Sequence record: PZ445451.1
Origin: a phage
DNA length: 64,000 nt
Reading direction: 5' to 3' (one strand)
A program made the translations under genes and the position numbers. Under the pieces are notes generated by a model. The model did not search any database, was not told the origin of the DNA, and saw only the letters and a list, made by a program, of their open reading frames with translations. Numbering within the stretch: the stretch's first letter is position 1; each line of letters starts with the position of its first letter. Shown here piece by piece: positions 51,235 to 60,150 of this stretch.

Positions 51235-51330
51235 ATGATCAAGAAAGAAAACAGCTTGACGGTTGGAACGATTAACGCTATCATTCTAGCCGTTCCATTT
51301 TGGATTGTAGTAGCGGTTGTTATTTTCTAA
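51235..51330 (+). CDS. Small hydrophobic peptide (31 aa), not in ORF track
   Basis: MIKKENSLTVGTINAIILAVPFWIVVAVVIF, one transmembrane helix. Confidence 0.35.
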   Translation: MIKKENSLTVGTINAIILAVPFWIVVAVVIF

Positions 51331-51339
51331 AAAATATTC

Positions 51340-51395
51340 TTGACAACGTTTTTTAATCTGATAAGATGTATCACATAGGGCGGCAATAGTGCCGC
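51340..51395 (+). promoter_or_regulatory. Promoter plus 5' stem-loop unit (PeSL-like)
   Basis: TTGACA 51340-51345, 16 bp spacer, TAAGAT, then CACATAGGGCGGCAATAGTGCCGC hairpin at predicted transcript 5' end. Confidence 0.65.
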
Positions 51396-51419
51396 TCATA
51401 ACAGAAGAGAGAAATAATC

Positions 51420-51692
51420 ATGGCATCATATAGCGCATCAATGATCGTAACGGGCATGACTGGTAAACCTATGCGCGGTGGCGGATCTTTCGCTAACATC
51501 AATATTGATGGGCGTTTATCCCTGGATGCAGCGATCACCGTGGCACGGGAAACATTTAAAAAAGAATGTAATTTCAATAAACAAGATTATCTCGGCTTCG
51601 TTATTGAAAAAACAGCGCGCTTTGTTGATTATAAAAGCCCGAAAATGATCGACACTACACTAAAAGCGCAAGATGTAGCATTTTTGCTTTAA
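51420..51692 (+). CDS. Early protein, unknown function
   Basis: 90 aa ORF downstream of PeSL unit with A/G-rich RBS. Confidence 0.55.
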   Translation: MASYSASMIVTGMTGKPMRGGGSFANINIDGRLSLDAAITVARETFKKECNFNKQDYLGFVIEKTARFVDYKSPKMIDTTLKAQDVAFLL

Positions 51693-51695
51693 GGC

Positions 51696-51755
51696 TTGAC
51701 ACTGAAAAATAATTTAGTAATATATACCACATAGGGCGGGAAATGGTTTCCCGCC
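51696..51755 (+). promoter_or_regulatory. Promoter plus 5' stem-loop unit (PeSL-like)
   Basis: TTGACA 51696-51701, 16 bp, TAATAT, then CACATAGGGCGGGAAATGGTTTCCCGCC hairpin 51735-51755. Confidence 0.7.
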
Positions 51756-51777
51756 AAATCAAAGAAAGGGTAACACA

Positions 51778-52140
51778 ATGAGCAAGCAAATCAATACTAT
51801 CATGTTAAACCTGGTATCTTTCCGCGATGACGTGAAAAATCTTTCGCGTGATGCAGTGGATGCACGGATCGAAAGCTATCGCACACAGATCGCAACATTA
51901 CCGTTAAAACGTGATCAACATGCCGCTAATATGATGCTTGGTGCTATGATTAAAAAGATGATTCAGTGTGATCTTACCCTGGCTTATGAATATGCTGGCG
52001 ATCTCTTTGTAACGTATAATAAGCCCGTTCCAGGTATGAGCACCACGGAAGAATTGCATGCCTTAAATTTGCGACAAGATGCATGGGATAACATGCGCCG
52101 TGTTATGGTATGGGCCGAAAGCGGTAAAATTTACGAATAA
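51778..52140 (+). CDS. Early protein, unknown function
   Basis: 120 aa ORF, RBS AAAGAAAGGG. Confidence 0.55.
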   Translation: MSKQINTIMLNLVSFRDDVKNLSRDAVDARIESYRTQIATLPLKRDQHAANMMLGAMIKKMIQCDLTLAYEYAGDLFVTYNKPVPGMSTTEELHALNLRQDAWDNMRRVMVWAESGKIYE

Positions 52141-52146
52141 AAACGG

Positions 52147-52200
52147 TTGACATTGCACTAAAACCTGATAAGCTATCTTAAAGCGGGAATTGTTCCCGCT
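52147..52200 (+). promoter_or_regulatory. Promoter plus 5' stem-loop unit (PeSL-like)
   Basis: TTGACA 52147-52152, TAAGCT -10, hairpin AGCGGGAA-TTG-TTCCCGCT 52182-52200. Confidence 0.6.
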
Positions 52201-52218
52201 TACATAGGATAAAACTTT

Positions 52219-52365
52219 ATGAAACAATATGTAATGAGTATCCACACCAAAAACGGCGCTACTGTTACGACTCCGGCACGGTTTGCACTTGTAAACCGTT
52301 GCAAGAGACTAAAACGAGAGTTAAAAAATAACCGTGCAACGGGCTTTAAACGCTGGGGAGGATAA
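52219..52365 (+). CDS. Small basic ORF (48 aa), not in ORF track
   Basis: MKQYVMSIHTKNGATVTT...RWGG; its last codons contain GGAGG 6 nt before the TTG start of the next ORF. Confidence 0.4.
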   Translation: MKQYVMSIHTKNGATVTTPARFALVNRCKRLKRELKNNRATGFKRWGG

Positions 52366-52367
52366 TC

Positions 52368-52628
52368 TTGTTTTTTCTAAAAGTTTGTGATAATGTGATC
52401 GCTTTTGAACATGCTACAACGTTCGACCTGGCGAGATACGCTATCAGGTTTAAAGATAATGTTTATCCCCGTGCTGGCGGCGGTTACACTATTTTTAATC
52501 ACCGTAACGCTCAATTAACGGATATAACTAATCCAGATCCTGGAGTGTATCGGATAGGCTGGCTACCGTCAAAAGACGCTGCAAGCATGTTTAAGGTGTG
52601 TAAACTACTAACAGAAGAGGCGAACTAA
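52368..52628 (+). CDS. Early protein, TTG start, translationally coupled
   Basis: 86 aa frame with no in-frame ATG near 5' end; GGAGG 6 nt upstream of TTG. Confidence 0.45.
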   Translation: MFFLKVCDNVIAFEHATTFDLARYAIRFKDNVYPRAGGGYTIFNHRNAQLTDITNPDPGVYRIGWLPSKDAASMFKVCKLLTEEAN

Positions 52629-52629
52629 C

Positions 52630-53184
52630 ATGGGGCGTGAATATGTGATCCAGTCCTGGGTAAAGCATGATGCTAATGATCCGCGCATAATACCAGATGA
52701 CATGATCGATCACATGGTAGGGTATAGCGGGGAGCAGATAGGAAATCGAGCGGCAAAGAGCAACGGCAACACCAGGACGCGATCCGTTCGTCCTGGATGG
52801 CTGGCGAATGGTAACGCTGACATTGCAAGCGCCGCAGATCCAAGCGATGACGCTAAAAATAATCCCTTGTACAGCATTGATCCGGCTTTTAAGGTGTTGG
52901 AAGAGTATCCCGCTAAATTAGCCGCACTAGATAAGGCATACGAAGAAAAGCGCATGGCCTGGACTGTATACAACACCGCTAAAATGGTGCTAGATGCAAA
53001 ACTAATTAAAGCCCAGGAGAAGATCAATAAACTTGTTACCATAGCGCAAGAGGAAGACCAGGGCGACCAGGAGGAAGAGGAAGAAATCATGCCTACCCTG
53101 GAAGAGGAAGAGATCCAGCCATACATGCCGACAGAAGAGGAAAAAAGACAAGCCCTAAAAAATTATGAAAATTGCATTGTGTAA
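52630..53184 (+). CDS. Early protein with strongly acidic C-terminal tail
   Basis: 184 aa; EEDQGDQEEEEEIMPTLEEEEIQPYMPTEEE tail; ATG overlaps previous stop. Confidence 0.55.
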   Translation: MGREYVIQSWVKHDANDPRIIPDDMIDHMVGYSGEQIGNRAAKSNGNTRTRSVRPGWLANGNADIASAADPSDDAKNNPLYSIDPAFKVLEEYPAKLAALDKAYEEKRMAWTVYNTAKMVLDAKLIKAQEKINKLVTIAQEEDQGDQEEEEEIMPTLEEEEIQPYMPTEEEKRQALKNYENCIV

Positions 53185-53187
53185 GGC

Positions 53188-53243
53188 TTGACATATGCAA
53201 ACAAGCCCCGTAATATGTACCACATAAAGCGGGGCAACGCCCC
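53188..53243 (+). promoter_or_regulatory. Promoter plus short stem-loop
   Basis: TTGACA 53188-53193, 17 bp, TAATAT, then GGGGC-AAC-GCCCC hairpin. Confidence 0.5.
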
Positions 53244-53265
53244 ATAAGGTGAAATAAAAAATCAC

Positions 53266-53293
53266 TTGACACCTGAAATCAGTAAGCTATAAT
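53266..53293 (+). promoter_or_regulatory. Consensus sigma70 promoter TTGACA-16-TATAAT
   Basis: Perfect -35 and -10 hexamers with 16 bp spacer; no following hairpin. Confidence 0.65.
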
Positions 53294-53330
53294 GCTTATA
53301 TAGATTGAAACATTACTAAGGAATAAAAGC

Positions 53331-53510
53331 ATGGCTATTATTGCAAAGACTGAGATCGTAGGTTTAGATTCTATCATCCTGGCATATGAGGAAGCTATAG
53401 AAATGTATGTGGTTTCCTATGGTGATTATATCCGTGAATATAAATCTATTGATCTAGCTTTTGAATGCTATATTCGCCAGGTCAATAAAGCATATGATGA
53501 TTATCGTTAA
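53331..53510 (+). CDS. Small ORF (59 aa), not in ORF track
   Basis: ATG after GGAATAAAAGC; downstream of consensus promoter. Confidence 0.4.
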   Translation: MAIIAKTEIVGLDSIILAYEEAIEMYVVSYGDYIREYKSIDLAFECYIRQVNKAYDDYR

Positions 53511-53529
53511 AAGTTTTAGTCTTGTGCTA

Positions 53530-53558
53530 TTGACAACGAACGATAGTACAAGCATAAT
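53530..53558 (+). promoter_or_regulatory. sigma70-like promoter TTGACA-17-CATAAT
   Basis: Good -35, acceptable -10; no clear hairpin. Confidence 0.5.
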
Positions 53559-53605
53559 AACTTTTATCGGGAATACTCCTAACTAATCAAAAGAGATTAA
53601 AGACT

Positions 53606-53971
53606 ATGGCTAAAAATATCAATGTTTCTGCTTATGCTACCCTGGCTAACACTGCTAAAATTGAACTATCCAGCATTGAAGCGGTACATATTAGCGCCCG
53701 TCGCTGGTTTCAAAAGTCTTATGGTAATACTTATTTCTCTTTGATGGTTGACGTTGAGATCGGCGGTAAACTGATCGAAGTAGTTAACGTTCCGTTTCAA
53801 TATGGTTATGGGGATCATTTTGATACCGTTGCCCTAGAAGAGTTTAGCAAGGTTATCAACCTGGAAGGTAAAGAGTTTTCAAATTATGCTTACCTTTCCC
53901 GCTTTTGCCGTGATAATGGGATCGCTGTATACAGTCATGCAAGCGATGTAAAACGTAAAAAAGATTTATAA
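53606..53971 (+). CDS. Early protein, unknown function
   Basis: 121 aa ORF, RBS AAAGAG. Confidence 0.55.
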   Translation: MAKNINVSAYATLANTAKIELSSIEAVHISARRWFQKSYGNTYFSLMVDVEIGGKLIEVVNVPFQYGYGDHFDTVALEEFSKVINLEGKEFSNYAYLSRFCRDNGIAVYSHASDVKRKKDL

Positions 53972-53977
53972 AAAGCA

Positions 53978-54035
53978 TTGACAGCACGAATAAAAAGCAT
54001 ATAATACTTATATCGAGAGCGGGAATAGTTCCCGC
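53978..54035 (+). promoter_or_regulatory. Promoter plus 5' stem-loop unit (PeSL-like)
   Basis: TTGACA-16-TATAAT (53978-54005), hairpin GCGGGAA-TAG-TTCCCGC 54019-54035. Confidence 0.7.
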
Positions 54036-54059
54036 CTCACTGAAAAAGAGATTAACATC

Positions 54060-54299
54060 ATGGCTAAATCTAAAATGTACAACGGTCACAAAAATAAAAC
54101 TCATTGGAATGTAAGCCTTTGGATTAATAATGATGAATCGTTATACTTATACGCTGTAGGTTTAATAAATGAGTGCGGCAATAAAGATAAAGCGGCGGAT
54201 CTGATGTGCTACAGATTAAAACAGGATGGAATCACTCATACACCTGATGGTTTCAAGTATAGTAAAACTGCAATCCGTGCCGCTATGGTAGGAATGTAA
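54060..54299 (+). CDS. Early protein, unknown function
   Basis: 79 aa ORF downstream of PeSL unit. Confidence 0.55.
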   Translation: MAKSKMYNGHKNKTHWNVSLWINNDESLYLYAVGLINECGNKDKAADLMCYRLKQDGITHTPDGFKYSKTAIRAAMVGM

Positions 54300-54308
54300 T
54301 AAAAGCAG

Positions 54309-54368
54309 TTGACAACGTTTTTTAATCTGGTATAGTTTATCGCATAGGGCGGGAAATGGTTTCCCGCC
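54309..54368 (+). promoter_or_regulatory. Promoter plus 5' stem-loop unit (PeSL-like)
   Basis: TTGACA-16-TATAGT, hairpin GGCGGGAAA-TGG-TTTCCCGCC 54348-54368; core identical to the 51696 unit. Confidence 0.7.
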
Positions 54369-54390
54369 AAATCAAAGAAAGGTTATCATT

Positions 54391-54618
54391 ATGGCTATCG
54401 TTATTGTTCGCGTATCCGGCACGGTTGGAATCTCCCAGGTAGTAGCAGTTATCACCGAGAAGAAAGGGGATGATCTTCACTCCTCATTGAATAGCTGGGC
54501 GGTCGCTAACTTTGGGCAATGGTCGAGCGTTGAGTACATCGAATCCTACCAGGTGCCAACGATTAGCCTGACCGATCTCAACGTTGATCGTCTGTTATGC
54601 CTGGATCAATTAAACTAA
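54391..54618 (+). CDS. Early protein, unknown function
   Basis: 75 aa ORF, RBS AAAGAAAGG. Confidence 0.55.
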   Translation: MAIVIVRVSGTVGISQVVAVITEKKGDDLHSSLNSWAVANFGQWSSVEYIESYQVPTISLTDLNVDRLLCLDQLN

Positions 54619-54626
54619 AAATAATA

Positions 54627-54684
54627 TTGACAAGACAACTAAAATTAGTAAAATGTAATTCATAGGGCGGCAATAGTGCCGCCC
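54627..54684 (+). promoter_or_regulatory. Promoter plus 5' stem-loop unit (PeSL-like)
   Basis: TTGACA-16-TAAAAT, hairpin GGGCGGCA-ATAG-TGCCGCCC 54665-54684. Confidence 0.65.
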
Positions 54685-54705
54685 CTAGTAAGAGAGATTA
54701 TCAAA

Positions 54706-54921
54706 ATGGCTAATATCCGCACCTTGTTAAAAAATGCAAAGCAAGTTTTATTTTCAGATGACGAGTATTTCAACAAAGACATTACAGGCGTGAAAAATTT
54801 AAAAGACGTGAAGGATGTTATCGGTATCCGTGGATCTTTACGTAAAGGTGACATATACGGTAACAAGGTGCAATATAAACTGTCAAAAGATTATGATTTT
54901 ACTTTGACAATTATTTCATAA
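54706..54921 (+). CDS. Early protein, unknown function
   Basis: 71 aa from ATG (MANIRTLLKN); the track start lies inside the 5' hairpin. Confidence 0.5.
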   Translation: MANIRTLLKNAKQVLFSDDEYFNKDITGVKNLKDVKDVIGIRGSLRKGDIYGNKVQYKLSKDYDFTLTIIS

Positions 54922-54927
54922 AACTAC

Positions 54928-54988
54928 TTGTAAACCTGGTAAAATAAAGTAAACTATATTCATCAAGGCGGTGGAATAGCCCACCGCC
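54928..54988 (+). promoter_or_regulatory. Weaker promoter plus 5' stem-loop unit
   Basis: TTGTAA-16-TAAACT, hairpin GGCGGTGG-AATAGC-CCACCGCC 54967-54988. Confidence 0.5.
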
Positions 54989-55012
54989 TAACAAAGAGAA
55001 GAGGAAAACATC

Positions 55013-55183
55013 ATGATCACTTTCACTACCCGTGAAGCCGCTCGCAACGTTGCACGTAAAGTTAACGCCGCCAACCTGGGCGCTACGCTTAAAGCCCCGG
55101 TGAAAGATGAATCAGGAAAATGGATCTTTCCTGGTCTGCGTCACGCTGATAAGCTGGGAACATTAACGTTAAAAAATAAATAA
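55013..55183 (+). CDS. Small ORF (56 aa), not in ORF track
   Basis: MITFTTREAARNVARKVNAANLGATLKAP...; RBS AGAGAAGAGGA. Confidence 0.45.
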   Translation: MITFTTREAARNVARKVNAANLGATLKAPVKDESGKWIFPGLRHADKLGTLTLKNK

Positions 55184-55190
55184 TATCCGC

Positions 55191-55249
55191 TTGACAGTAG
55201 CATCGTTTATAAGTAAAGTAACAACAACGGCGGGAAATGGTTTCCCGCC
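55191..55249 (+). promoter_or_regulatory. Promoter plus 5' stem-loop unit (PeSL-like)
   Basis: TTGACA-17-TAAAGT, hairpin GGCGGGAAA-TGG-TTTCCCGCC 55229-55249. Confidence 0.7.
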
Positions 55250-55269
55250 ATCAATAAAGAGATAAGATT

Positions 55270-55629
55270 ATGAAATCAGTAAAAGCAATTAAAACTTACA
55301 TTGTGTCGGCTATTTCTTTTGATGGTACTACAACCGAAAAAGAAAAAATCACCGAACTGATGCGCCGTTTTAACTCTGAATACTGGTATCAATCTAATCG
55401 TGATCGTTATAATAACAATATGGTACAAGCTGTTAAAAGCTGGTTACAAGGTTTACCGTCAGATATCAATATCGCTTTTAATTATAACGAGATCGATCAA
55501 TTATTAATTGAATGGAAGTACATAAAAGAAACAAGCAAAGAAACAACCGTTACCCGTGAGCGGGAAAATTATTGGTTATATATTGCAAGCATGATCGTAA
55601 CTTTGGCAAAATATCATAACGTAGCGTAA
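55270..55629 (+). CDS. Early protein, unknown function
   Basis: 119 aa ORF, RBS AAAGAGATAAG. Confidence 0.55.
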   Translation: MKSVKAIKTYIVSAISFDGTTTEKEKITELMRRFNSEYWYQSNRDRYNNNMVQAVKSWLQGLPSDINIAFNYNEIDQLLIEWKYIKETSKETTVTRERENYWLYIASMIVTLAKYHNVA

Positions 55630-55643
55630 TCGAGAGGAAAAAC

Positions 55644-55781
55644 ATGAACGCATCACAGCAGATCGAAAAATTCAACCGCAACAAAGCGAGTAAAGATTGG
55701 AACGAAGAGATCACCAAGAAAGGCGACAAGCGGAACAAAACAAAAAGAGATCGCAGCAGCAAAAGATACTGGAACGAATAA
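55644..55781 (+). CDS. Small lysine/arginine-rich ORF (45 aa), not in ORF track
   Basis: ATG after GAGAGGAAA; followed by terminator. Confidence 0.4.
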   Translation: MNASQQIEKFNRNKASKDWNEEITKKGDKRNKTKRDRSSKRYWNE

Positions 55782-55786
55782 CAAAA

Positions 55787-55810
55787 AAGGGCGCAATAAG
55801 CGCCCTTTTA
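55787..55810 (+). terminator. Rho-independent terminator AAGGGCGC-AATAA-GCGCCCTT + TTT
   Basis: 8 bp GC stem followed by T run. Confidence 0.65.
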
Positions 55811-55899
55811 GCTTATATAGAGGCTTGTTGCTTATAGGCAAGGGTAACGCCAGGATAAGCCTATAAACCACGTTAGACGGCTTTACAGGAGCTTTAAAA

Positions 55900-56082
55900 A
55901 TGAAATTAGAGGAAATAAGCAAGGCACTAGCCCAGGGGCAAAGGTTATGCGCCCGATATCGTGATCAATATGGCTTCATAACTAGCGGCGTGATCCTGGG
56001 GATGGAAGGCAATAAGATTTTTATTGACACGTTGAAAAACGTTGTATATAGTGACAATATAATCTCAATAAAACATATATGA
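55900..56082 (+). CDS. Hypothetical small protein
   Basis: 60 aa ORF after ACAGGAG RBS. Confidence 0.45.
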   Translation: MKLEEISKALAQGQRLCARYRDQYGFITSGVILGMEGNKIFIDTLKNVVYSDNIISIKHI

Positions 56083-56492
56083 GGCAAGAAATGAAAAAAT
56101 TATTGATCGCTGGTTTACTCTCTTTTGGCATGGTTGGAACATCTAGCGCGGCGATATCCTCCACAGTAGCAGAATTAAGCGCCGTTGATGCAATGGAAAA
56201 CGTCATGATCATTAATAATGCGATCCCCGATGAAATCATGGAGGATTCACACATGATCGCTTATGGTGCTGTTACACAACTAACGGCAAAAATAGATAAA
56301 TCTATTGTTAATGGCTTAAATGAAGATGTACCATGTGAAATTATTACCAGTGTGCTCACTACTCAAAATTTTACGCCGTGGCTAAAAAGTATTCAAAAAG
56401 TACACAGTACAGCCGCAGATCGTAGCAATGAAAAACTAGTGTCAGCACTTGCAACGTATACCCTAGCAAAATGCACCGAAATAAAAGATTGA
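56079..56492 (+). CDS. Secreted/periplasmic small protein
   Basis: ATGA-coupled start; signal peptide MKKLLIAGLLSFGMVGTSSAA (second in-frame ATG at 56091 also possible). Confidence 0.55.
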   Translation: MRQEMKKLLIAGLLSFGMVGTSSAAISSTVAELSAVDAMENVMIINNAIPDEIMEDSHMIAYGAVTQLTAKIDKSIVNGLNEDVPCEIITSVLTTQNFTPWLKSIQKVHSTAADRSNEKLVSALATYTLAKCTEIKD

Positions 56493-56539
56493 CAACATAG
56501 AAAGCACGTTATAAGATACACACAACAAAGGAGAACTAC

Positions 56540-56842
56540 ATGAACGGCATAGCTAAAACGTTTTTTCTTTTTTCTGGTGTAAATGATCCATCAATAAAAG
56601 TCGATAGCGTAAAAGAAAACAATACTATCACCGCTAAATTGTTTCAAGATGAAACAAATAACGTGCTAATCATTAATCTTAAAGAAATAACAAAAGGTTA
56701 TTATACTATTGCTTACCATGCGATCTATAATGCTGGTACTAGTGAGGAAGTGCAAACAAGCAACAACGAAAGCGCGGCGCTACCTGGTGATCTGGTGCTG
56801 GGCGTTATCAGTTTAATTGTCAATGATTTTTTTAAGGAGTAA
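56540..56842 (+). CDS. Hypothetical protein
   Basis: 100 aa ORF after AAGGAG RBS. Confidence 0.5.
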   Translation: MNGIAKTFFLFSGVNDPSIKVDSVKENNTITAKLFQDETNNVLIINLKEITKGYYTIAYHAIYNAGTSEEVQTSNNESAALPGDLVLGVISLIVNDFFKE

Positions 56843-56846
56843 AACC

Positions 56847-56942
56847 ATGCCCTATTTACATTTATTTTTCGGTATCTTATTGACAGGATCTTTTTTCTTC
56901 TGTATGCTTGTTTCTATTGTAAACCACGTTTTAAAACATTAA
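56847..56942 (+). CDS. Hydrophobic micro-ORF (31 aa), not in ORF track
   Basis: MPYLHLFFGILLTGSFFFCMLVSIVNHVLKH; ATG 7 nt after AAGGAG. Confidence 0.4.
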   Translation: MPYLHLFFGILLTGSFFFCMLVSIVNHVLKH

Positions 56943-56951
56943 GGAAACAGC

Positions 56952-57071
56952 ATGAAAATTATTCCCGTACAGTATAGCGTAATAAATCCAGCATATGAGG
57001 AAGGAAGGAAAACAAGCATGGCTTTATGTTGTATTGCTACTATAGCCATGTTATTATACACTGTGTTTTAA
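56952..57071 (+). CDS. Micro-ORF with hydrophobic C-terminus (39 aa), not in ORF track
   Basis: MKIIPVQYSVINPAYEEGRKTSMALCCIATIAMLLYTVF; RBS AAGGAAAC. Confidence 0.35.
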   Translation: MKIIPVQYSVINPAYEEGRKTSMALCCIATIAMLLYTVF

Positions 57072-57100
57072 TAGGTTTTATAGTTGTACGCTTTAAAGGC

Positions 57101-57128
57101 TTGACAATTTTTTGTTATGCTTTAAAAT
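57101..57128 (+). promoter_or_regulatory. sigma70-like promoter TTGACA-16-TAAAAT
   Basis: Good -35/-10; following hairpin degenerate (CGGC-AAAG-GCCG). Confidence 0.5.
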
Positions 57129-57171
57129 ATATCTTGAAAACGGCAAAGGCCGCAAACAAAAGGGTAAAATT

Positions 57172-57495
57172 ATGAAATCTGTGATCGGTGTTTATTTGGA
57201 TAATTCTGATTTTTTCTATCATCGCGCTCGTTTCCTTGATGCTATTGATATGATAGAATCAGGCTTTAAAGAATACCGCCTTGCACATGATGACCTGGAA
57301 GCATTACAGGGCAATAGTGTTTTTACATTGCAAGCGAAAGCACTATGTAAAAGCCGGATCGACATTGCGAGCAAAAAGATAGAACGCGGCATGTCCTGGT
57401 TGCGCACCGCAGAAATCAACATGGGGCAATGGTACGGCAAAAACTTAGAAAATAAACATACCTTTGTCAATGTAGAAAATATTGAAGATTATTGA
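57172..57495 (+). CDS. Early protein, unknown function
   Basis: 107 aa from ATG (MKSVIGVYLD) after AAAGGG; track start lies upstream of the predicted transcript start. Confidence 0.5.
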   Translation: MKSVIGVYLDNSDFFYHRARFLDAIDMIESGFKEYRLAHDDLEALQGNSVFTLQAKALCKSRIDIASKKIERGMSWLRTAEINMGQWYGKNLENKHTFVNVENIEDY

Positions 57496-57557
57496 TTGAC
57501 AGCACATCTAACGAGTAGTATATTGTATCTCATAGAGCGGGGAAATGGTTTCCCCGC
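57496..57557 (+). promoter_or_regulatory. Promoter plus 5' stem-loop unit (PeSL-like)
   Basis: TTGACA-17-TATATT, hairpin GCGGGGAAA-TGG-TTTCCCCGC 57537-57557 (compensatory G:C relative to other copies). Confidence 0.7.
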
Positions 57558-57577
57558 CTTAAAAGAAGAGATAAGCT

Positions 57578-57862
57578 ATGAAGATCACAAAAGCACTTTC
57601 CAACTATGCAGCACGTCGCGGATTATGCTTATCCGTTGAAAACTTAGGGAAAGAAGATTTTTTGTGTTTTTGGGAGCTTGAAAATGAAAGTGAATGGTTG
57701 TTCTCTTATTCTATCTGCGAAGATCAAAACGGTTGTTTGTTAACCTGGCGCGGTAATATCTATCTACCGGAAGAAATCAAAGAAGAATTGCCAGGCACGA
57801 TCATGACTGAGAAACAGCTTAAGGAAGTGATTAATTTTGTAGGGCAAAACATTAAAAAATAA
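57578..57862 (+). CDS. Early protein, unknown function
   Basis: 94 aa ORF, RBS AAGAAGAGATAAG. Confidence 0.55.
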   Translation: MKITKALSNYAARRGLCLSVENLGKEDFLCFWELENESEWLFSYSICEDQNGCLLTWRGNIYLPEEIKEELPGTIMTEKQLKEVINFVGQNIKK

Positions 57863-57863
57863 T

Positions 57864-57920
57864 TTGACACTAGGCAAACAACGTAGTAAAGTTTATCACA
57901 TAGGGCGGCAATAGTGCCGC
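57864..57920 (+). promoter_or_regulatory. Promoter plus 5' stem-loop unit (PeSL-like)
   Basis: TTGACA-17-TAAAGT, hairpin GCGGCA-ATAG-TGCCGC 57905-57920; near-identical to the 51340 unit. Confidence 0.65.
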
Positions 57921-57943
57921 TCATAACAGAAGAGAAACAAATC

Positions 57944-58114
57944 ATGATCCCGACTATGTTTTATGTATCGCGCAAAGGTCACAATATTTTTTGGTCTGAA
58001 GATTTAAATGAAGCCATGACGTTTGCCCGTGATCGTGTTGCTATCGGTGGCGTTAACATTACTGTAACCGATGAAAACGGCATTGAATACTATAACGGCG
58101 ACGATGAAGAGTAA
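57944..58114 (+). CDS. Early small protein (56 aa)
   Basis: ATG (MIPTMFYVSRKG); track GTG start lies inside the 5' hairpin. Confidence 0.5.
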   Translation: MIPTMFYVSRKGHNIFWSEDLNEAMTFARDRVAIGGVNITVTDENGIEYYNGDDEE

Positions 58115-58121
58115 TTAATAA

Positions 58122-58142
58122 GGCGGGGGAGTATTCCCCGCC
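58122..58142 (+). other. PeSL-type hairpin without an upstream promoter
   Basis: GGCGGGG-GAGTATT-CCCCGCC directly after a stop codon and 20 nt before next ATG; no TTGACA/-10 upstream. Confidence 0.45.
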
Positions 58143-58161
58143 GTCAATAAAGAGGTAAATC

Positions 58162-58431
58162 ATGAAAATATCTTTGGACGTTGCAATCAAGGCCATCGAA
58201 TCCGGTTACACCCTGGTAAAAGATGATAAGGCTAAAATAGTGCATCATGTTAACAAGGAAACAGGCGAAAGCATGATCACATATAAAGCCGCCTACTTTC
58301 TCCAATCAGTAGCAGATCCGCGCGTACAACGCCAGGTTACAGCGGCTATTGCTAAAAAATTATGTGCTTTACAGGGCACAAGTTTTAACGAGATCGCCCC
58401 GTGTTTTGACTGGTCGAGCTTGAAAAAATAG
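58162..58431 (+). CDS. Early protein, unknown function
   Basis: 89 aa ORF, RBS AAAGAGG. Confidence 0.55.
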   Translation: MKISLDVAIKAIESGYTLVKDDKAKIVHHVNKETGESMITYKAAYFLQSVADPRVQRQVTAAIAKKLCALQGTSFNEIAPCFDWSSLKK

Positions 58432-58432
58432 T

Positions 58433-58494
58433 TTGACAATATGCTGTTATCTGGTAAAGTGTACGACATAGGGCGAGGCAATAAGGCAACGCCC
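58433..58494 (+). promoter_or_regulatory. Promoter plus divergent 5' stem-loop
   Basis: TTGACA-16-TAAAGT, then ATAGGGCGAGGCAATAAGGCAACGCCC imperfect hairpin. Confidence 0.5.
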
Positions 58495-58513
58495 ATTAAT
58501 GAGGGGTAGAATC

Positions 58514-58618
58514 ATGTTAGAGAAAATTTTCACGGTTGTAATAGTGGGCCTGGCGTTATCGGTTGGATTGGTTGCAACTATGGCTAACATGATCCTATCT
58601 TCCCACGGTATTGGATAA
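58514..58618 (+). CDS. Hydrophobic micro-ORF (34 aa), not in ORF track
   Basis: MLEKIFTVVIVGLALSVGLVATMANMILSSHGIG; RBS GAGGGG. Confidence 0.4.
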   Translation: MLEKIFTVVIVGLALSVGLVATMANMILSSHGIG

Positions 58619-58628
58619 GGTGAATCAA

Positions 58629-58844
58629 ATGATCACGAATAAGACAGGTAAAACAGAATTTTTACGCAGCTTGCAAATAGGTAAACCTGAGATCTGGCAT
58701 TGCACTAAATCCGCGCATAATGAAATGAAAGATTTTACCGCTACTTTACAACGTGTTAAAATATCTATCACACAGAAAAAAGCCTTGTTAGTAGTAGAAA
58801 ACGAGATCCCGCAAACCATTATTATTGTCGAGCGTACAGCATGA
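58629..58844 (+). CDS. Early small protein (71 aa)
   Basis: ATG 6 nt after AAGGTG; track TTG start less likely. Confidence 0.5.
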   Translation: MITNKTGKTEFLRSLQIGKPEIWHCTKSAHNEMKDFTATLQRVKISITQKKALLVVENEIPQTIIIVERTA

Positions 58845-59227
58845 AAACTGAAATCATTAACGAAATGATCAACGGCTATAAAGAAGCCTTTATTTTTGCC
58901 GAACCAGCGACGGATCACAATGGGGAATATATTGAGAATCTAGACGATTATGATTTTTCTCCTAGCGCCCTGAAACGTATTACCAGCGATGTGACCGCCT
59001 TTTGTAGTGCCAATGTTGCCGCTATCTCTGAGGCAATGAGCGACGGCGCTACAGCAAACCAGATCGGGAATGATTTACATTTTACCCGTAACGGTCACGG
59101 CGTAGGTTTTTGGGATCGCCCTGAAATATACACTACTAACACCGCCAACCGTTTAACTGATGCAGCTAAATTAATGCCATTGGTGCATGCTTACATTGGT
59201 GAAGATAATTTGATTTATATTGACTAA
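58841..59227 (+). CDS. Early protein, unknown function
   Basis: 128 aa ORF, ATGA-coupled to previous gene. Confidence 0.55.
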   Translation: MKTEIINEMINGYKEAFIFAEPATDHNGEYIENLDDYDFSPSALKRITSDVTAFCSANVAAISEAMSDGATANQIGNDLHFTRNGHGVGFWDRPEIYTTNTANRLTDAAKLMPLVHAYIGEDNLIYID

Positions 59228-59232
59228 AAGTG

Positions 59233-59290
59233 TTGACACCGATCCCCAATATGTTATTATTTACCACGTAAGCGGGAAATGGTTTCCCGC
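59233..59290 (+). promoter_or_regulatory. Promoter plus 5' stem-loop unit (PeSL-like)
   Basis: TTGACA-16-TATTAT, hairpin GCGGGAAA-TGG-TTTCCCGC 59272-59290. Confidence 0.7.
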
Positions 59291-59314
59291 CAGGTAATCA
59301 AAAAGGTAAATACT

Positions 59315-59704
59315 ATGCGCAACCTGGTTTCTGTTTCTAACGTTGAAAAATTTCAATCTTTACAGGGTATCGTTAACAACGTAGCGCCTTTTTTAGTCAA
59401 CGGCTTGATTGCAAAGATGAAAAATAAACATCATGCGGCATGGTCTGCTTACTGCTTTGATAATGATGAAAAAGCGGCTGAAATGATGCTAAATATGCTG
59501 TTAGACAGTGTAGAATCATCTTTACCGGAAAACATCGCAGAAGAGATCACCTATCGTTATAATATGGCGATCACTTACCAGGAGGTTGCGCAATTTAATA
59601 TGATGGACGATGACGAACAACAGGATCAGGAAATGTTTTGGGAGTATGCTGATCGTCAATCGGCTTTTGATGAAAAATTAGCGATGTATTATAACGAATA
59701 TTAA
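59315..59704 (+). CDS. Early protein with acidic segment
   Basis: 129 aa from ATG after AAAAAGG; track start lies inside promoter/hairpin. Confidence 0.55.
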   Translation: MRNLVSVSNVEKFQSLQGIVNNVAPFLVNGLIAKMKNKHHAAWSAYCFDNDEKAAEMMLNMLLDSVESSLPENIAEEITYRYNMAITYQEVAQFNMMDDDEQQDQEMFWEYADRQSAFDEKLAMYYNEY

Positions 59705-59717
59705 TACACGGTAAAAG

Positions 59718-59745
59718 AAAGGGGCGCACTAAGCGCCCTTTTTTG
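59718..59745 (+). terminator. Rho-independent terminator GGGCGC-ACTAA-GCGCCC + TTTTTT
   Basis: GC stem followed by six T. Confidence 0.65.
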
Positions 59746-60089
59746 TATTCTTTTTTCACGATGGAAACAACACGTAAAGAATAGGCGTAAAGGTGGCGTA
59801 AAACCATCTAAAACCGACTGTAACCGCTTAAACAAGGTAGGAATGATTAATCACCTTACCAGGGTGAAAAAGCTGTTATAAAGCTACCTAGAGCGTTTAA
59901 AGCACATAGGGAATAATTTGCTTTTTATCTTGCCTTTTATCCTGCTTTTGATTATTATTATGGAACGGGCGGCACCTGGGGACAGGGGAAGATAATCACC
60001 GGAAGATCCCGCTATATATTGATAGCTAATACCTATTAAACAACAAAACATCAAAGGAATAAACTATCAAATCTTTACAATCCTACCTA

Positions 60090-60150
60090 TTGACACAGGA
60101 TCACCCTTATACTAATATGTATCCCGTAGGGCGGGAAATGGTTTCCCGCT
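60090..60150 (+). promoter_or_regulatory. Promoter plus 5' stem-loop unit (PeSL-like)
   Basis: TTGACA-17-TAATAT, hairpin GCGGGAAA-TGG-TTTCCCGC 60130-60150. Confidence 0.7.

Follow-up and report, generated by a model that had tools for sequence, protein, structure and literature searches.

A conserved 39-residue membrane microprotein gene, predicted from sequence and missing from annotation, behind a genus-restricted micro-ORF in Escherichia phage PaulScherrer

Two adjacent hydrophobic micro-ORFs, designated here ORF-A and ORF-B, were analyzed in Escherichia phage PaulScherrer (Bas60), a virulent, phi92-like Justusliebigvirus that infects E. coli; the window was the whole stretch of 64,000 nucleotides from record PZ445451.1. 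By its conservation across phage lineages ORF-B is validated as a genuine gene, and its product is a predicted membrane microprotein. The 39-aa gene is missing in PaulScherrer and in all other Justusliebigvirus records inspected, several of which have a 49-aa CDS instead. ORF-A, a candidate gene, is an orphan confined to Justusliebigvirus that lies over a putative promoter. An earlier note had placed both ORFs with exact coordinates and had credited them with good ribosome-binding sites and transmembrane-like helices, which we could confirm: AAGGAG precedes the ATG of ORF-A by 7 nt and AAGGA that of ORF-B by 6 nt, and the best 17-residue Kyte-Doolittle windows had means of 2.35 (ORF-A) and 2.29 (ORF-B). 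The features of the region are the following:

51235..51330, + strand: 31-aa micro-ORF bas60_0114 with a C-terminal hydrophobic stretch, unrelated, in 114 phage records
56489..56517, + strand: sigma-70-like promoter, TTGACA-17-TAAGAT, 5′ of the 100-aa gene (consensus match)
56540..56842, + strand: 100-aa gene, phi92 gp240-like, phrog_10737 (PHROG E=7e-42), function unknown
56834..56839, + strand: Shine-Dalgarno AAGGAG of ORF-A, within the last two codons of the 100-aa gene, invariant in 16 genomes
56847-56942, + strand: ORF-A, 31 aa, ATG start, MPYLHLFFGILLTGSFFFCMLVSIVNHVLKH, GenBank bas60_0131, hypothetical protein
56880..56908, + strand: sigma-70-like promoter, TTGACA-17-TATGCT, inside ORF-A (consensus match)
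56941..56945, + strand: Shine-Dalgarno AAGGA of ORF-B, overlapping the TAA stop of ORF-A
56952-57071, + strand: ORF-B, 39 aa, ATG start, MKIIPVQYSVINPAYEEGRKTSMALCCIATIAMLLYTVF, phrog_10979 member, no GenBank annotation
56967..57017, + strand: conserved N-terminal motif of ORF-B, residues 6-22, VQYSVINPAYEEGRKTS (from information content, 66 members)
57018..57068, + strand: C-terminal hydrophobic anchor of ORF-B, residues 23-39, ending at the last residue
57026..57175, + strand: GenBank CDS bas60_0132, 49 aa, in another frame than ORF-B, no family match
57101..57128, + strand: sigma-70-like promoter, TTGACA-16-TAAAAT, for the next gene at 57172-57495 (consensus match)
58514..58618, + strand: 34-aa hydrophobic micro-ORF, phrog_14631 (PHROG E=1.7e-22), unrelated

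ORF-A and ORF-B lie in a run of small + strand genes, almost each of which is preceded by a near-consensus sigma-70 promoter. Matches to the sigma-70 consensus placed near-consensus promoters at 56489, 56880 and 57101, and no terminator-like sites were found on the + strand between 54.6 and 59.6 kb. The promoter at 56489 is the likely transcript start for the 100-aa gene, ORF-A and ORF-B together, and the predicted promoter at 57101..57128 marks the 3′ boundary of the unit. From these consensus matches we infer early timing and co-transcription of ORF-A and ORF-B. The earlier note had spoken of an early operon; the setting is indeed early-like (promoters, no terminator, a homologue of T7 gene 1.1), with the timing itself read from promoter sequence only. 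The T7 gene 1.1 homologue lies close to the block, and a nearby gp239-like protein carries a signal peptide. Neither a transcriptome of this phage group nor a functional study of the ORF-A and ORF-B genes was found in the literature. The 100-aa gp240-like gene showed a strong frame-specific synonymous excess within Justusliebigvirus and is kept as the gene next upstream of ORF-B in rV5-like phages. Its product has 36-37% identity to phAPEC8 gp260 and to the counterpart in phiWec186, and in both phages an ORF-B homologue comes next. When the product was modelled by AlphaFold2 from the single sequence, the pLDDT was 45 and the model unusable.

Profile searches assigned ORF-B to phrog_10979, a family labelled "membrane protein" by prediction and placed in the category moron, auxiliary metabolic gene and host takeover. 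The match (E=3.3e-8, 34 bits) aligned residues 6-38 with positions 6-38 of the 39-position profile, and the architecture of the family (about 32-41 aa, N-terminal motif, terminal helix) was found in ORF-B as well. A profile made from family members recovered ORF-B-like proteins with E values down to 1e-18. By tblastn, matches of 43-52% identity were obtained in Phapecoctavirus, Rosemountvirus and jumbo phage GAP32, whose homologues are annotated as "membrane protein" or left unannotated, and the family also occurs in uncultured phages. Examples are phAPEC8 gp259 (YP_007348372.1), which has the same gene order as ORF-B, and WNT48773.1 of Salmonella phage SPLA9. The order of a gp240-like gene followed by an ORF-B homologue is kept in phAPEC8, phiWec186 and five metagenomic lineages; besides this gene, a partner in rV5-like phages only, no conserved partner of ORF-B was found across the phage groups.

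The family comprised 36 clusters in a set of 5.8 billion proteins and 38 representatives at 50% identity, and all relatives were of 32-58 aa save two artefactual matches. The top representative match (P0038, 843 aa) was rejected as a repeat protein whose unit contains "TVNPVYNSSK", and the other (P0063) as an assembly artefact. A padded ORF-B query against the protein clusters returned near-identical ORF-B clusters only, and IMG/VR contributed 2 further close relatives and 8 further family loci. Within Justusliebigvirus, ORF-B was intact in all 26 copies, with a synonymous excess that was not significant (P=0.14). When 185,579 species genomes were searched for the family, the single match lay on a contig of a metagenome-assembled genome, and the DNA of ORF-A and ORF-B had no match in 5,426 E. 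coli genomes. As judged from these searches, the ORF-B family is essentially absent from bacterial genomes and limited to virulent phages.

Alignment of 66 family members indicated that conservation in the ORF-B family lies in the motif rather than in the helix. The motif consensus reads V-E-Y-T-x-x-N-P-A-Y-x-E-G-R-x-M, in which positions 1-4, 7-10, 12-14 and 16 carry about 3-4 bits each, compared with about 1.2-3.0 bits, mostly below 2.6, for the helix columns; V6, Y8 and N12 were invariant in alignment A2. Within the genus, 7 of the 9 amino-acid changes in ORF-B fall in the anchor, most of them staying hydrophobic. AlphaFold2 modelled residues 13-38 as a continuous helix (pLDDT 88). Basic residues lie N-terminal to this helix and nothing lies C-terminal to it, and the median number of residues past the hydrophobic run in the family is 0. 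Hydrophobicity and the positive-inside rule thus predict a tail-anchored inner-membrane microprotein with its motif in the cytoplasm (N-in). Searched against PDB sequences, the family profile produced insignificant matches to designed helical channels (E=2.4-7.5). The N-terminal tryptic peptides expected from the sequence are IIPVQYSVINPAYEEGR, or IIPVQYSVINPAYEEGRK if R19-K20 is left uncut.

The explanation that we prefer, to which as a whole we give about even credence, starts from a small early transcription unit that would run from the promoter at 56489 through the 100-aa gp240-like gene and ORF-A to ORF-B, within a sigma-70-driven accessory-gene region of this phi92-like virulent phage. 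ORF-B would be inserted tail-first into the inner membrane, so that its motif sits at the cytoplasmic membrane surface; the helix would be a generic anchor and the motif would provide specificity, by binding and then inhibiting or redirecting a conserved enterobacterial protein that works on the cytoplasmic side of the inner membrane. Both the N-in topology and a host target for the motif are what we infer. The predicted anatomy and the phage-only occurrence favour a cytoplasmic motif that is tethered to the membrane and binds to a factor of the host. ORF-A would be a young, genus-specific hydrophobic micro-ORF that arose over a former ORF-B promoter.

ORF-A is essentially one membrane helix, after which only NHVLKH follows. 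It consists of 48% T, and we estimate that a 31-codon frame of this composition has a chance of about 20% of staying open. Since an open frame in such T-rich sequence is almost automatically hydrophobic and not rare, ORF-A is unusual only in its ATG, its consensus ribosome-binding site and its tight packing between genes. The consensus AAGGAG, together with an ATG 4 nt past the stop of the 100-aa gene, makes it probable that ORF-A is translated by coupling to that gene. ATG, Shine-Dalgarno and the stop that forms the next ribosome-binding site were invariant in 16 genomes.

By tblastn, ORF-A was found in 56 records, all of Justusliebigvirus, and it matched no family in PHROG, Pfam, NCBIfam or PADLOC. 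No PHROG was hit below E=0.27, so ORF-A did not qualify as a member of phrog_10979, and a paralogous relationship to ORF-B was rejected because the PHROG of the latter was not matched. The peptide had no match in 72,556 plasmids. A protein-cluster search with padded ORF-A returned a frameshifted 43-aa variant as its sole match and no 31-aa copy, possibly owing to a length cut-off, so that this search says little on homologues. ORF-A was intact in 25 of 26 copies, with 3 synonymous and 4 conservative changes (P=0.15, not significant), and its frame alone shows a synonymous-to-nonsynonymous pattern in the coding direction; eight additional Justusliebigvirus genomes added no new variable site. 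One metagenomic contig carried ORF-A frameshifted by a T6-to-T7 change, with ORF-B intact. ORF-A and ORF-B share a frame, separated by TAA GGA AAC AGC. A readthrough fusion of the two was rejected because in other phages the ORF-B homologues begin at this methionine although no ORF-A precedes them, and because the TAA is conserved.

In a rival reading ORF-A would be no functional gene, and the 109-nt junction would be a T-rich ORF-B promoter with its 5′ leader in which one frame is open by chance, any peptide being a by-product. We regard this reading as a serious one, with a probability somewhat short of even. ORF-A contains the site TTGACA-17-TATGCT, whose spacing from the next ATG is the usual one (the -10 hexamer ends 43 nt 5′ of the ORF-B start), at the position where sister lineages carry the promoter of their ORF-B homologue. 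At the same junction, the sister lineages phAPEC8, phiWec186, L035, L036 and L039 have a promoter without an ORF, and L038 has neither. The T content makes an open hydrophobic frame cheap, and the non-significant synonymous excess, the frameshifted natural copy and the lack of any homologue found outside Justusliebigvirus point the same way. Against it, the start and stop signals of ORF-A are invariant, all but one of the 26 copies are intact and all of its amino-acid changes are conservative. The promoter hexamers inside it are themselves not conserved and vary across the genus (TTGTCA, TTAACA and TTGACG; TATACT).

Two further results argue against a chance frame. Micro-ORFs were counted between 49 and 64 kb as frames of 25-50 codons with an ATG, a Shine-Dalgarno 4-10 nt 5′ and a hydrophobic window scoring 2.0 or more. 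Three were found (ORF-A, ORF-B and 58514-58618), all on the + strand in gaps between larger genes, whereas 200 dinucleotide-preserving shuffles of this 15-kb region gave a mean of 0.12 such ORFs and never reached 3 on the + strand. In addition, contigs L037, L040, L044 and L045 have an unrelated hydrophobic micro-ORF of 27-32 aa at the same junction, with a frame-specific synonymous excess (7 synonymous to 5 nonsynonymous changes, P=0.008) and a stop kept as TAA or TAG; by these substitution patterns the micro-ORF of this uncultured lineage is under purifying selection. That ORF-A is a diverged orthologue of the L037/L040 micro-ORF was rejected, since the sequences show no similarity and the shared -35 hexamer is read in different frames.

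A bolder extension of the preferred explanation, which we consider possible but doubtful, combines two claims. The ORF-B family would be a counter-defence or host-takeover device of unrelated virulent enterobacterial myoviruses (rV5-like, Rosemountvirus and GAP32-like jumbo phages) that neutralises one conserved host factor through its cytoplasmic-face motif by an undescribed mechanism, and its promoter would have been overprinted by new hydrophobic micro-genes at least twice independently, once by ORF-A and once by the 27-32-aa ORF of L037, L040, L044 and L045. If true, the junction would be a natural example in phages of membrane peptides born de novo from promoter DNA.

Superinfection exclusion, in which ORF-A, ORF-B or both would block the DNA entry of a later phage at the inner membrane in the manner of T4 Imm, appears unlikely. 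Both peptides are small and predicted to be early-expressed and membrane-embedded, and the signal peptide of the gp239-like protein indicates that envelope-directed early functions exist in the block. Nevertheless, the conserved part of ORF-B is predicted to be cytoplasmic, no similarity to known exclusion or defence families was detected in Pfam, NCBIfam or PADLOC, and prophages and host genomes, in which exclusion genes are frequent, lack the family. This absence, together with the predicted lack of periplasm-exposed residues in ORF-B, argues against exclusion of a periplasm-facing or prophage type.

Another role proposed for ORF-A, that of a translated leader which delivers ribosomes to ORF-B and sets its level irrespective of the peptide sequence, we hold to be improbable. 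The spacing is tight, with a gap of 4 nt on the 5′ side and a stop that overlaps the ORF-B Shine-Dalgarno, and the micro-ORF of L037, L040 and L045 shares this layout: its last codons provide GAGGG and its stop lies 4 nt before the ATG of the ORF-B homologue. A spacer, however, requires neither hydrophobic residues nor the frame-specific purifying selection seen on the amino acids of the sister lineage, and elsewhere the homologue of ORF-B makes do with a promoter and ribosome-binding site of its own.

Quite improbable, in our judgement, is that the peptides damage membranes as toxins or as holin- or antiholin-like proteins, depolarising or permeabilising the inner membrane for host shut-off or lysis timing. 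Type I toxins and small holins typically have short hydrophobic helices, and the designed helical channels mentioned above were the weak, non-significant PDB matches of the ORF-B helix. That helix is nevertheless the least conserved part of the protein and shows no conserved amphipathicity. Between 55.2 and 58.9 kb every annotated neighbour is a hypothetical protein that belongs to a PHROG of unknown function and has no recognisable lysis function, and no lysis cassette beside an endolysin or spanin was found among them. The charged hydrophilic C-terminal tail of holins and antiholins is likewise absent, ORF-B ending with its helix and ORF-A having the six-residue tail only. Neither the relatives nor the RNA partner of a type I toxin-antitoxin system (Hok, Ldr, Ibs or TisB type) were identified: the E. 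coli genomes (ORF-A/ORF-B DNA) and plasmids (ORF-A peptide) held no relative, the search for an antisense or structured RNA partner was negative, the locus contains no Rfam family and its RNA folding was no better than that of shuffles (z=-0.17 and -0.99).

Finally, it is very improbable that bas60_0132 is the real gene and ORF-B spurious: several pipelines annotate the 49-aa frame (BASEL phages, Nernie, Antha, cardinal) and 24 of 26 copies keep it open, but it has no family match whereas ORF-B has a PHROG match, it is frameshifted by a 1-nt insertion in the other two relatives (L003 and JLBYU50), the 20 nt 5′ of its ATG at 57026 contain no Shine-Dalgarno motif (AGGA, GGAG or GAGG), it reads across the near-consensus promoter 57101-57128, and four other phage groups have ORF-B homologues with no counterpart of its frame. 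On this comparison of the two frames, bas60_0132 is probably a mis-call that displaces ORF-B.

The earlier note had also described the micro-ORFs at 51235-51330 and 58514-58618 as similar to the pair; both are present at these coordinates and alike in kind, but not in sequence. The first is conserved down to 52-55% identity in Klebsiella phages, and the second in 231 phage records, among them those of rV5- and FV3-type phages. In GenBank the latter corresponds to bas60_0137, which starts at 58499, 15 nt before 58514; the PHROG profile begins at residue 6 of that product, so that the internal start at 58514 fits the profile better. A canonical promoter-hairpin cassette lies 5′ of this micro-ORF. 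No Pfam, NCBIfam or PADLOC model matched any of the four micro-ORFs.

The practical result is a correction of the annotation, by which the 39-aa ORF-B gene enters and the probably spurious 49-aa CDS leaves. Proteomic or AlphaFold-Multimer screens on the GenBank proteome are blind to ORF-B because it is missing from the records; one screen of this sort has been published for Bas60 (PMC11564622). ORF-B is a predicted small early accessory protein common to phage groups used in therapy collections, and it reduces to a 16-residue conserved motif and a generic anchor, which makes for a clear hypothesis of the motif as the function. Two unrelated hydrophobic micro-ORFs over the same promoter junction constitute a modest case for the origin of small membrane peptides. 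Small hydrophobic ORFs are common in phage early regions, and the present findings do not change current understanding.

Among known families, phrog_10979 resembles ORF-B in its end-to-end alignment, length, V-E-Y-x-x-x-N-P-x-Y-x-E-G-R motif and C-terminal helix; the Justusliebigvirus proteins differ in having Q for E at motif position 2 and T for M at position 16, and are preceded by ORF-A, whereas the relatives follow a promoter-hairpin cassette. T4 Imm and similar exclusion proteins are small, early-expressed inner-membrane proteins of virulent coliphages; unlike them, ORF-A and ORF-B have no Pfam match, and ORF-B is about half that size with no predicted periplasmic part. Bacterial regulators such as AcrZ, MgrB and MgtS are single-helix peptides of 30-50 residues whose action depends on their binding to a larger membrane protein, the general mode that the earlier note had suggested in naming inhibition of host transporters or defence proteins. 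No homology to them was found; in ORF-B the conserved determinant is a soluble, membrane-adjacent motif rather than the helix, and the family is phage-only. The surroundings of ORF-A and ORF-B, with repeated intergenic cassettes of a sigma-70 promoter and a conserved hairpin between small accessory genes, resemble the PeSL promoter/stem-loop cassettes of T4-type phages (PMC2839356, PMC4122927). In this region the hairpin lies 3′ of the promoter, within the 5′ leader, and gene replacement breakpoints fall at the cassettes, for example in JLBYU50; the ORF-A/ORF-B junction has lost its hairpin. For the kind of mechanism proposed for ORF-B, the likeness is to Gp11 of Staphylococcus phage PhiNM1, a small membrane protein of an early gene that blocks cell division by binding two host proteins, MurG and DivIC, at the membrane (PMC11237401). 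Both would be small, membrane-anchored early products, as predicted for ORF-B; no sequence relationship between the two was detected, host and phage type differ, and the targets of Gp11 are known.

Examination of the sequence, of hydropathy and of shuffled controls confirmed that two adjacent hydrophobic micro-ORFs lie where the earlier note had placed them, with the lengths, ribosome-binding sites and transmembrane-like stretches it had ascribed to them:

56847-56942, + strand: ORF-A, 31 aa, MPYLHLFFGILLTGSFFFCMLVSIVNHVLKH; ATG start, Shine-Dalgarno site, hydrophobic stretch
56952-57071, + strand: ORF-B, 39 aa, MKIIPVQYSVINPAYEEGRKTSMALCCIATIAMLLYTVF; ATG start, Shine-Dalgarno site, hydrophobic stretch
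56880-56908, + strand: promoter-like TTGACA-17-TATGCT inside ORF-A, its -10 hexamer ending 43 nt 5' of the ORF-B ATG

The ATG of ORF-A is located 7 nt 3' of a consensus AAGGAG and 4 nt past the stop codon that ends the 100-aa gene before it (the gp240-like gene), and an AAGGA sequence 6 nt 5' of the ORF-B ATG overlaps the TAA stop of ORF-A. Mean Kyte-Doolittle hydropathy exceeded 2.2 in a 17-residue window in both ORFs. When ORFs of 25-50 codons with an ATG, a Shine-Dalgarno site and a hydrophobic 17-residue window were counted between 49 and 64 kb, 3 were found compared to 0.12 in dinucleotide-preserving shuffles, all of them on the coding strand and in gaps separating larger genes. The stop of ORF-A and the start of ORF-B share a reading frame (TAA GGA AAC AGC ATG, 56940-56954), and readthrough would join them into a two-helix membrane protein of 74 aa; we judged this shared frame coincidental, since ORF-B homologues elsewhere use the same start methionine without any ORF-A.

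Judged by its conservation, ORF-B is a real gene, and it is a new, unannotated member of the known but uncharacterised family phrog_10979 ("membrane protein"), which it matched across the whole profile (E=3.3e-8). By tblastn, ORF-B was intact in all Justusliebigvirus records, and homologues at 43-52% identity were present in three further phage groups: Phapecoctavirus (phAPEC8 gp259, annotated "membrane protein"), Rosemountvirus (e.g. a 41-aa protein of SPLA9) and the Cronobacter jumbo phage GAP32 (an unannotated 32-aa ORF). When 5.8 billion proteins were searched with a profile, 36 clusters were obtained, and HMMER run exhaustively on 1.84 billion representatives gave 38 hits at E<=0.001; all hits except two were of 32-58 aa, and these two were discarded as artefacts, P0038 being a repeat protein and P0063 a product of assembly. 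A homologue (33-38% identity) of the 100-aa gene precedes the ORF-B homologue in phAPEC8, phiWec186 and five metagenomic lineages, so that the synteny of the two genes spans deep divergence. Among 185,579 bacterial species representatives a single hit was obtained, on an 18.5-kb contig of a metagenome-assembled genome, and the DNA of both ORFs had no match among E. coli genomes; by these searches, the family is essentially absent from bacterial genomes.

Over bases 55500-59500 the window shows 100% identity with Escherichia phage PaulScherrer (Bas60, MZ501100.1; record coordinate minus 32675 gives window coordinate), a virulent myovirus of the genus Justusliebigvirus (phi92-like, Stephanstirmvirinae). 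In its GenBank entry ORF-A is bas60_0131, a hypothetical protein, and ORF-B is not annotated, its place being taken by bas60_0132 (57026-57175, 49 aa, different frame). Records of BASEL phages, Nernie, Antha and cardinal likewise annotate ORF-A plus the 49-aa ORF, which there displaces the conserved ORF-B, and both micro-ORFs are unannotated in phi92, Paula, VEcB, alia, UAB_1, PD114, ESCO32, ALITA and others. bas60_0132 and its copies are probably spurious calls, because a 1-nt insertion shifts the frame in 2 of 26 relatives, no ribosome-binding site was seen upstream of the start, the ORF reads through a near-consensus promoter (57101-57128), and it had no match in the PHROG profile search. 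Four records named "Campylobacter phage" (A150, A145, C3 and A110a; MG065639, MG065645, MG065656 and MG065689) share about 97% identity with this E. coli Justusliebigvirus across the region; their host label appears doubtful.

Across 66 members of the ORF-B family, information content is about 3-4 bits at each consensus position of an N-terminal motif, V-E-Y-T-x-x-N-P-A-Y-x-E-G-R-x-M, and the hydrophobic segment that follows carries about 1.2-3.0 bits per position, mostly below 2.6. This segment reaches the C-terminus (median of 0 residues beyond), and basic residues are confined to the part preceding the helix. An AlphaFold2 model built with the family alignment (pLDDT 88) showed residues 1-12 extended and residues 13-38 as a single continuous helix. 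Within Justusliebigvirus, 7 of 9 amino-acid changes fall in the helix, with hydrophobicity mostly retained. ORF-B would thus be a tail-anchored inner-membrane microprotein whose functional, conserved part may be a short cytoplasmic motif tethered to the membrane, the helix acting as a generic anchor. Such an anatomy suggests that a host factor is bound at the cytoplasmic membrane face, and speaks against a role through packing of helices, through a pore or through a block in the periplasm.

ORF-A is, on the present comparisons, an orphan restricted to one genus and overlying a promoter-like site. Its matches were confined to 56 Justusliebigvirus records among 50,697 phage records (tblastn), and none was found on any plasmid or in any protein family. 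It may plausibly be a young micro-gene, or else a by-product of promoter DNA. With a T content of 48%, a long open hydrophobic frame is not improbable (about 20% by an estimate from composition); what sets ORF-A apart is its start signals and how closely its neighbours enclose it. The 26 copies (23 distinct sequences) vary at 7 sites, 3 synonymous and 4 with conservative replacements (P2H, T13S, M20I, K30R), a synonymous excess seen in this frame only and not significant (P=0.15). In the Logan metagenomic assembly SRR15852983, T7 in place of T6 shifts the ORF-A frame, and ORF-B is intact. A structured RNA is no alternative at this locus, because no Rfam match was found there and folding z-scores were -0.17 and -0.99. 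In phage JohannJBalmer (L007), a single T inserted into the 3'-terminal T-run of the gp240-like gene, near 56826, shortens the encoded protein by two residues, leaving the AAGGAG site and the ORF-A start unaffected.

The same junction, with the gp240-like gene on one side and the ORF-B homologue on the other, holds a canonical promoter-hairpin cassette without an ORF in phAPEC8, phiWec186 and two other relatives (L035, L036), a bare promoter (TTGCAT-17-CATAAT) in L039, and a 13-nt gap in L038. In four further relatives (L037, L040, L044, L045) a hydrophobic micro-ORF different from ORF-A (MMFSNLDRELKIKLAIAAVLWIMVFIAIIVRG in L040 and L045; shorter, 27 aa, in L037) overlies the conserved promoter in another frame. 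Given these varied contents, the promoter is the ancestral element of the junction. Between L044 and L045 (positions 1098-1196) the 32-aa micro-ORF differs at 12 of 99 nt, compared to about 0-2.5% in the flanking genes, with 7 synonymous versus 5 conservative changes (P=0.008, that frame only) and the stop kept as TAA or TAG. By this substitution pattern the micro-ORF of the L044/L045 lineage is demonstrably under selection as coding sequence, and hydrophobic micro-ORFs appear to have been overlaid on the junction promoter at least twice. With a second micro-ORF under selection, translation and perhaps function of ORF-A become more likely, though not proven, and we lean slightly towards ORF-A being a functional gene. 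The two contigs are otherwise nearly identical, so that the intact micro-ORF is a local divergence hot-spot, perhaps from allele exchange.

From 50 to 64 kb, nearly all small + strand genes have the same cassette in front of them, in which an A-rich tract is followed by TTGACA-16/17-TAtAaT, a conserved hairpin in the 5' leader and a ribosome-binding site:

51340, 51696, 53978, 54309, 54627, 55191, 57496, 57864, 58433, 59233, 60090 (within 51340-60150), + strand: examples of cassette promoter -35 hexamers
51375, 51731, 54344, 54662, 57532, 57900, 60126 (within 51340-60150), + strand: cassette hairpins
55644-55781: 45-aa ORF, T7 gene 1.1 homologue (Pfam Phage_1_1, E=1.7e-11, above curated cut-off; hypothetical protein in GenBank)
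56079/56091-56492: gp239-like protein, 133-137 aa, N-terminal signal peptide according to the phi92 annotation

The hairpin motif, CATAGGGCGG(G/C)AA(A)T(A/G)GT..CCGCC, was observed 9 times versus 0.24 expected, and promoter-like sites 53 times versus 32.5 in shuffles; the phAPEC8 record names the hairpin "PHIRE promoter". The arrangement is reminiscent of PeSL cassettes in T4-type phages (PMC2839356, PMC4122927), and it may drive gene shuffling. In phage JLBYU50 (L016), compared with the stretch from 57170 onward, the gp241-like gene after promoter 57101 is swapped for an unrelated 85-aa gene, with the breakpoint at the start codon and with ORF-A, ORF-B and the promoter retained, which has the look of a gene exchanged at the border of a cassette. 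No terminator-like site was seen on the + strand between 54.6 and 59.6 kb, and the remaining neighbours all belong to PHROGs without assigned function. The gp239-like protein, the secreted product of a gene predicted to be early, has a signal peptide also in L037, L039 and L040, and its gene stays adjacent to the gp240-like/ORF-B pair. The promoter-rich block of small genes and the T7 gene 1.1 homologue fit an accessory region that would be driven early by the host polymerase, in line with the early setting proposed previously, the timing being a prediction from sequence. A literature search found no transcriptome for this phage group.

The micro-ORFs at 51235-51330 and 58514-58618, which had been called similar, are unrelated in sequence, and both are conserved in phages outside Justusliebigvirus. 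The former occurred in 114 records, with identity falling to 52-55% among Klebsiella phages, and the latter (phrog_14631) in 231 records, rV5- and FV3-type phages included. GenBank starts the latter at 58499 (bas60_0137, 58499-58618); the ATG at 58514 (34 aa), as assumed initially, fits the PHROG profile better and has a GAGGGG ribosome-binding site shortly 3' of the cassette hairpin in its favour.

Thus, the observation of the micro-ORFs holds, and the interpretation given with it is partly supported. The finding is ordinary in kind; it allows the annotation to be corrected and yields a hypothesis that can be cleanly tested, namely that the function of ORF-B resides in the conserved motif and that the helix merely anchors it. 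Context, tail architecture, distribution and the absent RNA partner all argue against membership among holins or type I toxins. T4 Imm-type exclusion proteins and bacterial regulators such as AcrZ and MgrB are looser analogies, and membership in either type was unsupported by Pfam, NCBIfam and PADLOC searches. PhiNM1 Gp11, a small early membrane protein, binds MurG and DivIC, two membrane-associated proteins of its host (PMC11237401). Proteins of this type would be the nearest characterised analogue to the mode of action that we infer for ORF-B.
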